Below, in pieces: positions 1 to 5,280 of a stretch of DNA of 5,280 nucleotides. The DNA is from a virus (lineage: Duplodnaviria; Heunggongvirae; Uroviricota; Caudoviricetes). Position 1 is the first letter of the stretch; every line of letters starts with the position of its first letter. The position numbers were made by a program, and so were the translations under genes. The DNA is taken from IMG/VR virus record IMGVR_UViG_2778261453_000016, one strand, 5' to 3'. Under the pieces are notes generated by a model that made no database searches, was not told where the DNA came from, and saw only the letters and a list, made by a program, of their open reading frames with translations.

Positions 1-22
1 GTCTAAAAACTAGTATTAAGAC

Positions 23-42
23 TATCACTTATTTAAGTGATA
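23..42. repeat. Interrupted inverted repeat TATCACTTA-tt-TAAGTGATA upstream of the holin gene
   Basis: Seen directly: 23-31 TATCACTTA is the exact reverse complement of 34-42 TAAGTGATA, with a 2-nt spacer. No T-tract follows. TATCAC resembles lambdoid operator half-sites. Function unknown. Confidence 0.5.
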
Positions 43-108
43 CTGGTTGTCTGGAGATTCAGGGGGCCAGTCTAATATTGCACCATCTGTGTACATCGGG
101 GTGAGGAT

Positions 109-324
109 ATGAAATCAATGGATAAGTTAACAACAGGTATCGCCTATGGCACATCGGCTGGTAATGCTGGTTTCTGGGCATTGCAGTTACTCGATAAAGT
201 AACTCCGTCACAGTGGGCTGCAATCGGTGTGCTGGGTAGTCTGGTTTTTGGCCTGCTGACATATCTGACAAACCTTTATTTCAAGATTAAAGAAGACAGG
301 CGTAAGGTTGCGAGAAGAGAGTAA
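109..324 (+). CDS. Class II holin / pinholin (phage 21 S21-like), 71 aa, with dual-start motif
   Basis: Translation starts MKSMDK (Met1/Met4 dual start as in the S21 antiholin/holin pair). Two predicted TMDs: a Gly/Ala-rich TMD1 ([18 protein letters not shown]) and TMD2 ([23 protein letters not shown]), then a charged C-terminus ([13 protein letters not shown]). GAGG Shine-Dalgarno just upstream; stop TAA at 322-324. It is the first gene of the lysis cassette. Confidence 0.85.
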
Positions 325-328
325 TCCA

Positions 329-880
329 ATGACTCAAGACTATGAACTGGTTGTGAAAGGAGTTCGCAATTTTGAGAATAAAGTGGCGGTAACTGTAGCC
401 TTACGGGACAAAAAACACTTTGACGGTGAAATTTTTGACTTGGACATCTCGCTGGACCGTGTTGAAGGTGCCGCGCTGGAGTTTTATGAGGCAGCAGCCA
501 GAAGGAGCATCAGACAGGTCTTCCTGGATGTTGCTGCCGGGTTATGTGAAGGGGATGAGCAGTCGCCGGAAAAGCGCCCCATAATTTTAGAGGCGCAGAA
601 TGTGTGGATAACCTACAAAGGAAAGCTACCGGGAAGAATTACTGGTTCTCTGAAGACGCCACCGACGGCATTGCGGTCAGAAAAAGATGATATTGAATCG
701 CCCATTGAAAAACTGGAGGGCAGCGTCGCTGATCTGAATAAAAAATTGTCGGTGCTGATTCCTTCTGAAGATGAAAAAAAACGCCGCGATGAGCAGTTTG
801 CGGCGTTTTACGATTATTGCATTGAAGTTACTCGCAGGAATTTTGTGAAGATTTTTGAGGAGGGTAAATCTCTTCAGTAA
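329..880 (+). CDS. Hypothetical protein, N-terminal region YdfR/DUF1327-like (recollection-level assignment), 183 aa from ATG 329
   Basis: ORF track gives 308-880 from a TTG; the first ATG is at 329, preceded by a purine-rich stretch (GAGAAGAGAG), 4 nt after the holin stop. The N-terminus (MTQDYELVVKGVRNFENKV...GAALEFYEAAARRS) resembles the small prophage protein YdfR that sits between holin and lysozyme in E. coli Qin, as I recall it. The C-terminal ~110 aa are charged and have no family I recognise. Confidence 0.6.
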   Translation: MTQDYELVVKGVRNFENKVAVTVALRDKKHFDGEIFDLDISLDRVEGAALEFYEAAARRSIRQVFLDVAAGLCEGDEQSPEKRPIILEAQNVWITYKGKLPGRITGSLKTPPTALRSEKDDIESPIEKLEGSVADLNKKLSVLIPSEDEKKRRDEQFAAFYDYCIEVTRRNFVKIFEEGKSLQ

Positions 881-1088
881 GCTTATTGGCGGACGCTGCA
901 ATTAATTCAGGAAGGTCCGCAAGGTCATCTGTCAGTGGATATGATGAAAAATCGGCGGCAGTTCTGTTAAGAAGCGCTTTAACTAATTCCTTTTCCTTCT
1001 CCGGCATCAAGTTGATTAGAGCTACGACTGCTTGCCTGAGTGCGATTAAATCAGCAAAAGTTTGTTTTGGTAGATTTGTGTAATCCAT
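828..1088 (-). CDS. Hypothetical small acidic protein (86 aa), convergent with and overlapping the 3' end of the 329-880 gene
   Basis: Minus-strand ORF with ATG at 1088-1086, preceded in the mRNA by AGAGGCGACU-AUG (GAGG, 5-nt spacer). The predicted protein is helical and acidic (MDYTNLPKQTFADLIALRQAVVALINLMPEKEKELVKALL...). It overlaps the upstream + gene by 53 nt. No recognisable family. Confidence 0.4.
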   Translation of the reverse strand: MDYTNLPKQTFADLIALRQAVVALINLMPEKEKELVKALLNRTAADFSSYPLTDDLADLPELIAASANKLTEEIYPPQKSSQNSCE

Positions 1089-1201
1089 AGTCGCCTCTGT
1101 GTTTATCAGATTGACATCCTCCTCCCGCCAGTGCCCATCACTGGTGAGGTAAGATTTAACATATCCGGGGATTTGAAGCCGATAAATCCTGATAAATATC
1201 C

Positions 1202-2229
<1,028 letters not shown>

Positions 2230-2412
2230 ATTAATATTAAATCGGATTATTTTTAGCGCTGAATGTGAAATTTAAATAAAAAGGACTCTTCCATGAGTCA
2301 AAATCCTTGAAATCTTAAGGGTAAGATAAAAGGTCATTAGACAGAATGACACGTTTTATTAATAAATAAAGCTATTGTTTCATTCGTGTGTTTTTCTTTA
2401 CAAAAGTAATCC

Positions 2413-2441
2413 TTGCTATGGTTGGTTAATCATGCGTTAAT
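2413..2441 (+). promoter_or_regulatory. Candidate sigma70 promoter of the cold-shock gene (-35 TTGCTA, 17-bp spacer, -10 GTTAAT), with AT-rich upstream element
   Basis: Hexamers at 2413-2418 and 2436-2441. The layout resembles the cspA promoter (TTGCAT/CTTAAT as I recall it). It predicts a 5' UTR of about 140 nt, typical of CspA-family genes. A GGTTTGTTACAAA motif at 2448-2462 resembles the cspA cold box. Confidence 0.4.
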
Positions 2442-2589
2442 GGTGTTCTGGTTTGTTACAAAATTATCTGAAGCAGTCATTGTTATAATTTTATTATTTG
2501 TACCTCTTGAGATTTCCTTGTTGGTTTTTCTCTCTGATATTTTTTTTCGGACCATTCTGCCCAAGGGCTAACTTCTTCAAAAGGTAATA

Positions 2590-2805
2590 ATGATGTCTAA
2601 CAAAATGACTGGTTTAGTGAAATGGTTTAACCCTGAAAAAGGTTTTGGTTTCATCACGCCGAAAGATGGTAGCAAAGATGTGTTTGTCCATTTCTCAGCT
2701 ATTCAGAGCAACGATTTCAAAACGTTAACTGAGAATCAGGAAGTCGAATTTGGTATTGAGAACGGACCTAAAGGCCCCGCGGCTGTTCATGTTGTGGCAC
2801 TTTGA
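2590..2805 (+). CDS. cspI: CspA-family cold-shock protein (CspI/CspB-like), 70-71 aa
   Basis: Translation [41 protein letters not shown]... carries the RNP1 (KGFGFI) and RNP2 (VFVHF) motifs of the cold-shock domain. AAGG Shine-Dalgarno at 2581-2584. The true start may be the second ATG at 2593 (MSNKMTG). Paralog assignment (cspI versus cspB) is from memory and from synteny with the Qin prophage, and is not certain. Confidence 0.9.
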
Positions 2806-3004
2806 GGTAGAAAATATTACAAACCATATTCACTTTAGATGCCCGTGTTGCCATGGTTCTCAGTATAGAACATCATCTTTTGATGTTTCTGACAGGAATC
2901 CTTTCGGGGCAAAATGTATCTTTTGTAAATCAATGATGATTACATTTGATAATATTTCACAATACTTAAATGTTAGCCGTCTGTCGTTAGATTTAAGAAA
3001 GTGA
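2789..3004 (+). CDS. Hypothetical Cys-rich small protein (possible zinc-ribbon, C-x-C-C...C-x2-C), start uncertain
   Basis: ORF 2750-3004 (TTG start); the first ATG at 2789 overlaps the last 17 nt of the csp gene. It contains [12 protein letters not shown]...GAKCIFCKS. Its stop lies 6 nt before a strong intrinsic terminator. No clear Shine-Dalgarno, so translation would need coupling to csp. It may be non-coding 3' UTR. Confidence 0.3.
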
Positions 3005-3009
3005 AAATG

Positions 3010-3032
3010 AAGGCTCCTTCGGGAGCTTTTTT
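3010..3032 (+). terminator. Rho-independent terminator (8-bp stem incl. one G.U, UUCG tetraloop, T6 tract)
   Basis: AAGGCTCC-TTCG-GGAGCTTT followed by TTTTTT (T-run 3027-3032). An A-run on the 5' side means it could work in both directions. It probably ends the csp transcript. Confidence 0.75.
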
Positions 3033-3076
3033 GCTTAGTGTCTAGTCGATGGATACTCACATATTACGGTAACATT

Positions 3077-3307
3077 ATGAAAAAAATAATAGTTTTTTTT
3101 AACTCTGAACCAGCAATGGTAGTGCCAGTGATGACCGGAGTTAACACCATCATGCGTGAATATCCAAATGGCGAAACAACACACCTCACTGTAATGGCTG
3201 CAGGGTTTCCATCTCTGACCGGAGATCATAAAGTCATTTATGTAGCAGCGGATCGACATGTAACTTCAGAAGAAATTCTGGAAGCAGCAATGAGACTCTT
3301 GAATTGA
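3077..3307 (+). CDS. Hypothetical small prophage protein (76 aa from ATG 3077)
   Basis: ORF track 3038-3307. The internal ATG at 3077 gives MKKIIVFFNSEPAMVVPVMTGVNTIMREYPNGETTHLTVMAAGFPSLTGDHKVIYVAADRHVTSEEILEAAMRLLN. It lies just downstream of the terminator. Weak Shine-Dalgarno. No family recognised. Confidence 0.45.
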   Translation: MKKIIVFFNSEPAMVVPVMTGVNTIMREYPNGETTHLTVMAAGFPSLTGDHKVIYVAADRHVTSEEILEAAMRLLN

Positions 3308-3479
3308 TTTGATTCTAATGCATTGATAATAAATGATAATCATCTTTATCTGTTTGTGTGAAATTTAGACCGTCGTATGTTGATTATTGCGATGTTTCAT
3401 CTTATCTTTTATACGTTTGCTCCATATAATTGACACTACTGTGTACCAGGAAAGTCATAACAGACTAAAAGAGGAAATG

Positions 3480-3653
3480 ATGAACATTGAAGAGTTAAAA
3501 ACAAAAACAGAAGCAGATATTTCTGAATATATAACAAAAAAAATCATTGAGCTTAAGAAAAAGACCGGGAAAGAAGTTACCAGTATCCAGTTTACTGCAC
3601 GGGAAAAAATGACTGGTCTTGAAAGCTATGATATCAAGATTGATTTAATCTAG
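3480..3653 (+). CDS. gnsB: GnsA/GnsB-family protein (57 aa)
   Basis: Translation MNIEELKTKTEADISEYITKKIIELKKKTGKEVTSIQFTAREKMTGLESYDIKIDLI closely parallels the recalled E. coli GnsA/GnsB sequences (MNIEELKKQAE...TGKEVSEIRFTAREKMTGLESYDVKI...) and has the same length. GAGG at 3471-3474 is 5 nt before ATG 3480. The ORF track's longer 3387 start is unlikely. GnsB lies next to cspI in the Qin prophage. Confidence 0.75.
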   Translation: MNIEELKTKTEADISEYITKKIIELKKKTGKEVTSIQFTAREKMTGLESYDIKIDLI

Positions 3654-3717
3654 TCTGTTTATAGTATTAGCATCAATTTCTTGTCAGATGCTATTCAACA
3701 ATACAATTTACCCATAA

Positions 3718-3742
3718 ACCTCGTTTTTACGGGGTTTTGTTA
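3718..3742 (+). terminator. Candidate rho-independent terminator downstream of gnsB-like gene
   Basis: AACCTCG-TTTTTA-CGGGGTT stem (6-7 bp incl. one G.U) followed by TTTGTT, about 65 nt after the gnsB-like stop. Confidence 0.4.
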
Positions 3743-3948
3743 TATTTAAACATTACCGAATAGATATAAATCTCGATAGTCGGTGGTATTGGTTGTGTGA
3801 CAATACCTAGTCTTTTCGGTATGCCTGGAGAGAATACAAACGACAGATTATGTAAGGGAAACGCGCTGAAACTTTCACACTTTCATGCTGAGTGATTTGA
3901 CGTTATATTTTTAGCCGCAAGTGAAGAGCAAACGCATGGAGCGACAAA

Positions 3949-4155
3949 ATGCATAAAGATCAATACACTGATGACTCATCCCTGGATCAGGTCCGTGTAA
4001 AAACTATGCTCACTAGCACCATTTCTATGAGTTATCCGGATGTTGTAATTGCATGTATAGAACATCAAGTGTCTCTGGAAGCATTCAGGGCAATTGAGGC
4101 AGCGTTGGTGAAGCACGATAAGAATTCGAAGGATTATTCCCTGGTGGTTGACTGA
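3949..4155 (+). CDS. Hypothetical small prophage protein (68 aa), possibly YbcW/YnfO-like by position
   Basis: ATG at 3949 with GGAG at 3937-3940 (7-nt spacer). Translation [68 protein letters not shown]. Size and position (second gene before the terminase small-subunit gene) match the 68-aa ybcW slot in DLP12, but I cannot confirm homology from memory. Confidence 0.5.
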
Positions 4156-4405
4156 TCACCATAACTGCTAACCATTCAAACTATTTCACCTGTGACAGAG
4201 TCAATATCGCATTCTGTCACTGTCAGGCTAATACAGAACTACAATTCAACTACTGCAATGCCTCGTAATTAGGTGAATTTACAATATCGTCCTGTTCGGA
4301 TGCCAACTGCATTTCTGAGGATAAGGCGTTTATGACTCACATATTTGTCCCACACGCTCGCCAGTCCTGTGCGGGGTGGGAGGGGAGGTAAAGAAACCGG
4401 GATGT

Positions 4406-4600
4406 TCATCCATCATCACTTTGGATTGATGTATATGCTCTCTTTTCTGACGTTAGTCTCCGACGGCAGGCTTCAATGACCCAGGCTGAGAAATTCCCAG
4501 CCCCTTTTTGCTCAAGAGCGATGTTAATTTGTTCAATCATTTGGTTAGGAAAGCGGATGTTGCGGGTTGTTGTTCTGCAGGTTCTGTTCTTCGTTGACAT
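4406..4600 (-). CDS. Small ribbon-helix-helix-like putative DNA-binding protein (64 aa), possibly YlcI/DUF3950-like
   Basis: Minus-strand ORF. The mRNA has GGGG 7 nt before the AUG. Basic N-terminus (MSTKNRTCRTTTRNIR) then a pattern compatible with RHH: beta-strand (IRFPNQMIEQI), helix, G-x-x-S turn (GAGNFSAW), helix (VIEACRRRL). It sits just upstream of cos and is divergent from nu1, the position of ylcI next to nohD in DLP12 as I recall. Confidence 0.5.
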   Translation of the reverse strand: MSTKNRTCRTTTRNIRFPNQMIEQINIALEQKGAGNFSAWVIEACRRRLTSEKRAYTSIQSDDG

Positions 4601-4767
4601 GAGGTTGCCCCGTATTCAGTGTCGCTGATTTGTATTGTCTGAAGTTGTTTTTACGTTAAGTTGATGCAGATCAATTAATACGATACCTGCGTCATAATTG
4701 ATTATTTGACGTGGTTTGATGGCGTAGATGCACGTTGTGACATGTAGATGATAATTATTATCATTTT

Positions 4768-4790
4768 GCGGGTCCTTTCCGGCGATCCGA
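4768..4790 (+). other. cosQ-like region upstream of cosN (by similarity to the lambda right end)
   Basis: GGGTCCTTTCCGGCGATCCGACAGGTTACG directly precedes the cohesive-end sequence and matches my recollection of the lambda right-end/cosQ region. Exact cosQ boundaries are not determinable from sequence alone. Confidence 0.45.
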
Positions 4791-4799
4791 CAGGTTACG

Positions 4800-4811
4800 G
4801 GGCGGCGACCT
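4800..4811 (+). other. cosN cohesive-end sequence GGGCGGCGACCT (lambda-type 12-nt cos overhang)
   Basis: Exact match to the 12-nt lambda cohesive end. The downstream sequence (CGCGG...TTTATGAAAATTTTCCGGTTTAAGGCGTTTCCGTTCTTCTTCG...) tracks the lambda left end nearly base for base. Confidence 0.85.
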
Positions 4812-4851
4812 CGCGGTTTTTCACTATTTATGAAAATTTTCCGGTTTAAGG

Positions 4852-4865
4852 CGTTTCCGTTCTTC
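4852..4865 (+). promoter_or_regulatory. cosB R3 element (gpNu1 binding site), CGTTTCCGTTCTTC
   Basis: R-element consensus CGTTTCC-TTCT at the lambda-equivalent position downstream of cosN. Confidence 0.7.
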
Positions 4866-4906
4866 TTCGCCGTAACCTAATGTTTTTATTTAAAACACCC
4901 CCTGAA

Positions 4907-4922
4907 AAGAAAGGAAACGACA
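4907..4922 (-). promoter_or_regulatory. cosB R2 element (inverted orientation)
   Basis: AGAAAGGAAACGACAG is the exact reverse complement of 4949-4964 (a 16-bp perfect inverted repeat). It matches the lambda R2/R1 arrangement. Confidence 0.75.
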
Positions 4923-4948
4923 GGTGCTGAAAACGGGCTTTTTGGCCT

Positions 4949-4964
4949 CTGTCGTTTCCTTTCT
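4949..4964 (+). promoter_or_regulatory. cosB R1 element, CTGTCGTTTCCTTTCT
   Basis: Perfect inverted partner of R2. It lies about 25 nt upstream of the Nu1 start, as in lambda. Confidence 0.75.
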
Positions 4965-4988
4965 CTGTTTTTGTCCGTGGAATGAACA

Positions 4989-5280
4989 ATGGAAGTCAAC
5001 AAAAAGCAGCTGGCTGACATTTTCGGCGCGAGTATCCGTACCATTCAGAACTGGCAGGAGCAGGGAATGCCCGTTCTGCGGGGTGGTGGCAAGGGTAATG
5101 AGGTACTTTATGACTCTGCCGCCGCCATAAAATGGTATGCCGAAAGGGATGCTGAAATTGAGAACGAAAAGCTGCGCCGGGAAGTTGAAGAACTGAGGCA
5201 GGACAGCGAGACAGATCTCCAGCCAGGGACTATTGAGTACGAACGCCATCGACTTACGCGTGCGCAGGCCGACGCACAGG
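4989..5280 (+). CDS. nu1: Terminase small subunit Nu1 (lambda gpNu1 / NohA-NohD family), N-terminal 97 codons; 3' end beyond window
   Basis: ATG at 4989. Translation [69 protein letters not shown]... is near-identical to the lambda Nu1 N-terminus (winged HTH that binds cosB). The ORF runs in frame to the window end, so it is truncated by the window. Confidence 0.92.

Follow-up and report, generated by a model that had tools for sequence, protein, structure and literature searches.

The closest described counterparts of the locus analyzed here are the cos site of phage lambda and the cos-nohA region of the cryptic prophage Qin of Escherichia coli K-12. The group of phages with a lambda-type complex cosB includes lambda, 434, phi80, 21, Monarch, and Gifsy-1 (PMC4669245). 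Published work on such sites describes several features: (i) the 7-bp cosQ is highly conserved (PMC4669245), (ii) cosN comprises approximately 22 bp (PMC4856287), possesses a partial two-fold symmetry, and is nicked after bp 12 (PMC9026076), and (iii) packaging specificity resides in the contacts of the recognition helix of the small terminase subunit (TerS) with the R sites (PMC4669245, PMC9026076), the recognition helix of Nu1 being formed by residues 17-24 and the wing by residues 31-39 (PMC9026076). In the I2 segment, Sippy et al. replaced the block of bp 18-29 entirely and found the yield only mildly affected; bp 30-35 were critical (PMC4856287). Near-identical lambda-like cos sites are also carried by co-resident prophages of E. 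coli O157 Sakai, and the terminase of one such prophage can package another (PMC2669165).

The window analyzed in the present work is a stretch of 5,280 nucleotides from the IMG/VR virus record IMGVR_UViG_2778261453_000016. Its positions 4765-4970 correspond, base for base, to the joined right and left ends of the lambda genome in a pairwise alignment with NC_001416, where window position 4799 is aligned with lambda bp 48502 and position 4800 with lambda bp 1. For this alignment, the last 400 and the first 500 bases of lambda were joined and compared with window 4400-5280, and the collinearity is unbroken over that entire interval. In a BLAST search, window 4700-5000 was 94.0% identical to lambda-type records (E = 1e-126), and its identity to other lambdoid phages reached 97.7%; by BLAST and the pairwise alignment, the region is approximately 94-95% identical to lambda. 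We conclude, with a probability of about 0.9, that this region represents the cos of an E. coli lambdoid prophage resembling Qin, with the packaging specificity of lambda. It is an intact and ordinary textbook element, present in a very common allele and already known. The initial annotation had placed a complete lambda-type cosQ-cosN-cosB inside the window and had proposed an alignment to the lambda ends as a check; this alignment bears the proposal out, the I2 segment included, with a collinear match containing 10 substitutions and one 1-bp deletion over 4765-4970. A chance match was rejected, given the BLAST E-value of 1e-126, the exact and single cohesive-end sequence, and the collinear alignment with lambda. 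Headful packaging was likewise rejected on the BLAST match, the lambda alignment, the matches in E. coli genomes, and the exact cohesive end.

The heptamer GGGTCCT at 4770-4776 (plus strand), which, together with its coordinates, we take to be the packaging-termination element cosQ, is identical to lambda bp 48473-48479 and lies at the same distance from cosN as in lambda. It is invariant in all 13 cos sequences that were aligned, namely those of the window, lambda, K-12 Qin, the prophage of strain A32, an O157 copy, 2H10, Kati, PhiR63_1, PhiR34_1, PhiR42_1, PhiR47_2, an Stx2k phage, and an Stx1a phage. The sequence and position of the 7-bp cosQ were reportedly given by Wieczorek and Feiss in 2001; a full-text literature search for GGGTCCT together with cosQ returned nothing relevant. 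The 22-bp nicking site cosN occupies 4795-4816 (lambda bp 48498-17), and the alignment contains no difference from lambda between bp 48487 and bp 17. Since all 22 bp of cosN are identical to lambda, the two-fold symmetry described for this site (PMC9026076) is kept. The 12-nt cohesive end GGGCGGCGACCT was found on the plus strand exactly where the initial annotation had located it, at 4800-4811; it occurs only once in the window, without mismatches, and is identical to lambda bp 1-12 at all 12 positions, while approximately 0.11 matches would be expected in the window by chance even if two mismatches were allowed. By analogy with lambda, the top strand would be nicked at 4799/4800 and the bottom strand at 4811/4812. 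A terminator-like match at 4798-4813 consists of the cosN symmetry followed by the T-run of I2, and was not taken as a terminator.

For the segments that follow, the limits of I2 and I1 were adopted from PMC4856287 and those of R3 (bp 50-65) from PMC9026076. The bent AT-rich spacer I2 between cosN and cosB (4817-4849, lambda bp 18-50) retains its length and carries two substitutions, G18T (4817) and G24A (4823). The critical Nu1 (TerS) site R3 (4849-4864, plus strand) is identical to lambda bp 50-65, its core CGTTTCCGTTCT being located at 4852-4863. It is followed by I1 (4864-4889, lambda bp 65-90), the candidate segment for the IHF site and the intrinsic bend, with substitutions at 4870, 4872, and 4877; two further substitutions, at 4896 and 4901, are situated between I1 and R2. 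The inverted Nu1 site R2 (4908-4923, minus strand) is identical to lambda bp 109-124, and the accessory Nu1 site R1 (4949-4964, plus strand) is identical to lambda bp 151-166. The spacer between them (4924-4948) is 1 bp shorter than in lambda and contains one substitution (4933). The R-site core CGTTTCCKTTCT is thus found three times without mismatches, at 4852-4863 (plus), 4908-4919 (minus), and 4953-4964 (plus). Their arrangement is R3-I1-R2-R1, R2 pointing the opposite way to R3 and R1, as in the lambda-type complex cosB; R2 pairs with R1 in an inverted repeat of 26 nt and with R3 in one of 13 nt. The distances from cosN to R3 and from R3 to R2 are the same as in lambda, and there is no indel from cosN to R3. 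The start codon of nu1 lies downstream, at 4989 on the plus strand, and the view that three intact R sites are collinear with nu1 holds. The nu1/nohA gene for the small terminase subunit (4989-5280, plus strand; Pfam Phage_Nu1, E = 3.5e-60) is represented by its first 97 codons and runs off the window end. Residues 1-97 of the encoded protein are 97% identical to lambda Nu1, and residues 1-45 are fully identical.

The 10 substitutions within 4765-4970 fall at lambda bp 48471, 48486, 18, 24, 71, 73, 78, 97, 102, and 134, and the 1-bp deletion is near bp 137; none of these differences lies inside cosQ, cosN, R3, R2, or R1. The initial annotation named only those between R3 and R2 (bp 71, 73, 78, 97, and 102), and passed over the pair in I2, the pair to the side of cosQ, and the changes of the R2-R1 spacer (one substitution and the 1-bp deletion). 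The same five bases between R3 and R2 (C71, G73, C78, C97, and C102) are present in the Stx1a-converting phages and in PhiR47_2, the record of which is a complete phage genome with E. coli C as the named host (the phage status of the PhiR records, PV3405xx, rests on GenBank fields naming the propagation host). The R2-R1 spacer is 1 bp shorter in all 12 non-lambda sequences of the comparison, including 2H10, Kati, PhiR63_1, and PhiR34_1, lambda being the outlier. T18 and A24 were observed only in the window and the O157 copy among the 13 cos sequences compared, and are absent from all 94 matching phage records. The T18/A24 allele has so far been seen in prophages and IMG/VR contigs only; a search of IMG/VR for this allele produced 15 matches, none of them at a contig end in the loci examined. 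Both bases lie inside bp 18-29 of I2, and the critical bp 30-35, as well as the whole of bp 25-50, are unchanged.

The deviations from the lambda sequence are allelic variation of a kind that is ordinary among lambdoid phages, and a change of specificity is not expected. Judging from the sequence, the variants could at most modulate the efficiency of packaging or its dependence on IHF. The earlier description of the site as probably functional appears reasonable, because all genetically defined elements are unchanged from lambda and the variants either occur in deposited phage genomes or are located in a replaceable segment (PMC4856287). The cos region also looks recombinant in its own right: on the side of cosQ (4765-4799), it agrees with 2H10, Kati, PhiR63_1, and A32, and from lambda bp 25 on the sequence matches the Stx1a phages and PhiR47_2, T18/A24 being found in O157-type prophage copies only.

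The genes preceding cos are those of a lambdoid right arm. They encode a P21-type holin (109-324), an ORF of the DUF1327/YdfR family (308-880, plus strand), a phage lysozyme (1202-1735), a DUF2514 Rz-type spanin (rzpQ, 1732-2229), cspI (2590-2805, plus strand) with a cspA-type 5' thermoregulator (Rfam match at 2435-2851), ynfN (3038-3307), gnsB (3480-3653), and an ORF similar to lambdap79/ybcW (3949-4155). The last right-arm gene before cos is a ynfO/ylcI-like gene on the minus strand (4406-4600; Pfam DUF3950, E = 8.7e-20), which is 97-98% identical to the corresponding lambda DNA and is annotated as 'YlcI/YnfO family protein' in near-identical prophages. The gene order is that of the K-12 cryptic prophage Qin, essQ-ydfR-rrrQ-rzpQ-cspI-ynfQ-ynfN-gnsB-...-ynfO-cos-nohA. 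When the DNA is integrated, circular, or concatemeric, the late operon (holin, lysozyme, Rz, and accessory genes) extends across cos to nu1, which makes cos internal; this is exactly what an integrated lambdoid prophage should show. The contiguity of lysis and accessory genes with nu1 had been read as a sign of a prophage, circular, or concatemeric form, and near-identical copies of the window are indeed integrated in E. coli chromosomes.

The cspA thermoregulator (RF01766) match at 2435-2851 (plus strand) is full-length, scores 109.8 bits against a gathering score of 78, and spans the 5' leader and the coding region of cspI. The YdfR-family ORF at 308-880 encodes 190 aa versus 103 aa for K-12 YdfR, and in the nearest genomes the gene bears the annotation of a truncated pseudogene; an exact match to the 190-aa protein was observed on only one contig of a large assembly collection (Logan ERR3970525). 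Inside rzpQ (1732-2229), in another frame, an ORF at 1883-2179 (plus strand) contains a 15-residue stretch resembling a lipoprotein signal and occupies the position of rzoQ (Rz1) in K-12 Qin.

At least 80% of the window is present in 233 complete E. coli genomes, but no complete genome of this species agrees with it over the entire 5,280 bases. Of 5426 complete E. coli genomes, 4514 contain a lambda-type cos that matches the 206-bp stretch, and a single genome may hold as many as eight copies; 465 records are at least 99% identical to this stretch, and the exact allele (100%) was found in at least 30 genomes among the matches listed, mostly those of O157:H7. Strain A32, whose match of 99.6% starts from base 75 of the window, contains an integrated prophage, with an integrase and the early region upstream; downstream follows a complete head and tail module of the lambda kind, made up of nu1, A, W, the portal and protease genes, D, E, FI, and the tail genes as far as J. 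Window 1-74 is unaligned in the closest relatives, the matches of which start at base 75; these 74 bases are 100% identical to another IMG/VR contig (L023) and also fall within the more distant matches H51-H53, which hints at a further site of recombination ahead of the holin gene. An apparent mosaic breakpoint is located at approximately 4373-4384 (locus L015), just upstream of ynfO and cos. On the Logan contig named above, window 81-4373 is matched at 97.7% and is followed by another packaging module, consisting of a DUF1441 small terminase and a large terminase of the GpA type; for O157-type prophages whose upstream genes are of the DLP12 type, a good match begins only at 4384.

The identity of the site leaves room for different states of the prophage that carries it. 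An intact site may belong to a defective prophage, as in K-12 Qin and many Sp prophages of O157, in which case cos would be either a relic or would be cut only when terminase and heads are supplied by a co-resident prophage of lambda specificity (cross-packaging). This reading concerns the state of the prophage rather than the identity of the site, and we consider it less likely than not. Members of the lineage to which the window belongs are often defective. K-12 Qin retains cos and nohA without head genes; in CFSAN004176, the most similar complete genome (99.9%), nu1 is interrupted by the IS66-family element ISEc23, which is accompanied by a duplication of the 8-bp target (window 5186-5193), and the portal gene is likewise incomplete, being truncated. 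One tail gene is frameshifted in the A32 prophage, and the O157 copy with an identical cos belongs to a prophage without an early region. Sp4 of O157 Sakai, which is without an intact terminase, is nonetheless packaged, according to the authors most likely by the terminase of Sp14, the putative cos of which is nearly identical (Asadulghani et al. 2009, PMC2669165). The ISEc23 insertion at 5186-5193 is shared by CFSAN004176 and one IMG/VR contig (loci L010 and L029), whereas the window is uninterrupted there: it contains no insertion sequence at these positions, and its nu1 shows no interruption as far as the window extends. Moreover, in the closest IS-free relative, the IMG/VR contig L026 (99.85% over window 1869-5280), nu1, A, and the portal gene are intact, with full-length ORFs of 181, 641, and 533 aa, respectively.

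A second alternative assigns a role to the variant bases themselves. The T18/A24 variant, combined with the GC-richer flanks of I1, shows 100% identity from one prophage to another, in most cases within O157:H7 strains. It might represent either a selected allele that alters packaging efficiency or IHF dependence, or a shared signal that lets one terminase mobilize several co-resident, partly defective prophages. We regard such a role as unlikely.

The initial annotation further stated that the interval between R3 and R2 differs from lambda in its AT-rich bend/IHF segment and that this may affect packaging specificity. The differences themselves are real: five of the 43 bp that separate R3 from R2 are substituted, in each case from AT to GC. 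To assign them to the bend segment is, however, an overstatement, as the T5/A4 tract TGTTTTTATTTAAAA at 4882-4896 is unchanged from lambda, and the substitutions flank it. The IHF consensus WATCAANNNNTTR has two candidate matches in I1 on the minus strand, at 4878-4890 (one mismatch) and 4873-4885 (two mismatches), of which the former is identical in lambda and the latter differs from lambda only at an unspecified N position. We infer a candidate IHF core from these consensus matches in I1; matches with two mismatches are common in this AT-rich window (100 observed versus approximately 79 expected). A specificity other than that of lambda would be favored by the five substitutions and by the I1 bend, which belongs to the proposed R3-IHF-R2 hairpin that docks the Nu1 dimer (PMC4669245, PMC4856287). 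The published determinants of specificity nevertheless map to R3, R2, and R1 and to Nu1 residues 1-45, all of which are identical to lambda; the R3-R2 spacing is unchanged along with the T5/A4 tract, the candidate IHF match at 4878-4890 is untouched, and that at 4873-4885 is altered only at the N position. PhiR47_2 combines the same five bases with a lambda-type Nu1. Thus, the suggested effect on specificity is not borne out, because the R sites and the Nu1 helix are identical to lambda and the same I1 variant exists in a deposited phage genome, and we consider a non-lambda specificity very improbable. The recognition helix (residues 17-24), the wing (residues 31-39), and R3 (bp 50-65) are all of the lambda type, which, by the definitions of PMC9026076 (R-site bp 55-63), corresponds to lambda specificity. 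Finally, although lambda cos is a common vector component, an origin from a cosmid, a lambda vector, or lambda contamination of the assembly instead of a resident prophage is refuted by the divergence of the region from lambda (only about 94-95% identity) and by its presence, at 98-99.9% identity, in complete E. coli chromosomes that are independent of each other and number in the hundreds, and cos is joined without a break to natural prophage genes of the Qin type across all 5.2 kb; such an origin can be practically dismissed.

If the site operates as its lambda counterpart does, packaging would proceed as follows. Induction would lead to rolling-circle replication, by analogy with lambda. 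Dimers of Nu1 would attach to R3 and R2, spanning an I1 bent by IHF, with R1 as an accessory site, and the bound Nu1 would position the large subunit gpA on cosN. Nicking by gpA at 4799/4800 on the top strand and at 4811/4812 on the bottom strand would generate the 12-nt 5' cohesive ends. The terminase would then stay on the cosB end, dock on the prohead, and translocate the DNA until the next cos, where cosQ (4770-4776), cosN, and I2 would trigger the terminating cut.

For the lambdoid prophage, the site marks the junction of the right and left arms, and has little import beyond annotation; given an active prophage or helper, the ends of the virion DNA can be predicted from it. Identical cos sites of lambda specificity in the prophages of one strain allow cross-packaging and the transfer of defective prophages together with their cargo genes (PMC2669165). 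Since cross-packaging has been described in O157 Sakai (PMC2669165), even a relic site used in trans would be known biology.

The cos region can also be compared with individual known systems. In the icd-linked prophage of O157:H7 PV15-279, the 206 bp of 4765-4970 are 100% identical to the window, T18 and A24 included; its upstream genes, however, are of the DLP12 type (bor-ybcV-ybcW-ylcI) rather than the Qin type, and the early region is absent. Approximately 15 kb upstream of this cos-bearing prophage, beside phoQ, PV15-279 harbors a small satellite-like element (locus L009, 1-5300), which encodes a RepA-family helicase, the capsid components major capsid protein and head decoration protein, and a small terminase subunit of its own. 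The Stx1a phages (LC645428 and others) and PhiR47_2 (PV340567) agree with the window at every base from lambda bp 25 until past R1, except for one difference of PhiR47_2 in the R2-R1 spacer. At bp 18 and 24 they carry G, like lambda, the Stx1a phages additionally have A at bp 16, unlike the window, and the sequence upstream of cosQ diverges from it.

The cos/nohA region of K-12 Qin (NC_000913, approximately 1636368-1636755) shares with the window the gene order from essQ to nohA, the cos architecture, and the shorter R2-R1 spacer. Unlike the window, it has the lambda bases at bp 48471, 48486, 18, 24, 71, 78, and 97, and its R3 contains a G-to-A change (lambda bp 54). Qin contains ydfO in place of the ybcW/lambdap79-like gene of the window, and after nohA it lacks the head genes and most tail genes. 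The cos of lambda itself (NC_001416, bp 48468-48502 joined to bp 1-171) differs from the window in the upstream accessory genes, which are bor and lambdap78 in lambda and the Qin-type cspI, ynfN, and gnsB in the window. The two sites have the same order and spacing of cosQ, cosN, I2, R3, I1, inverted R2, and R1, followed by nu1, save for the R2-R1 spacer.
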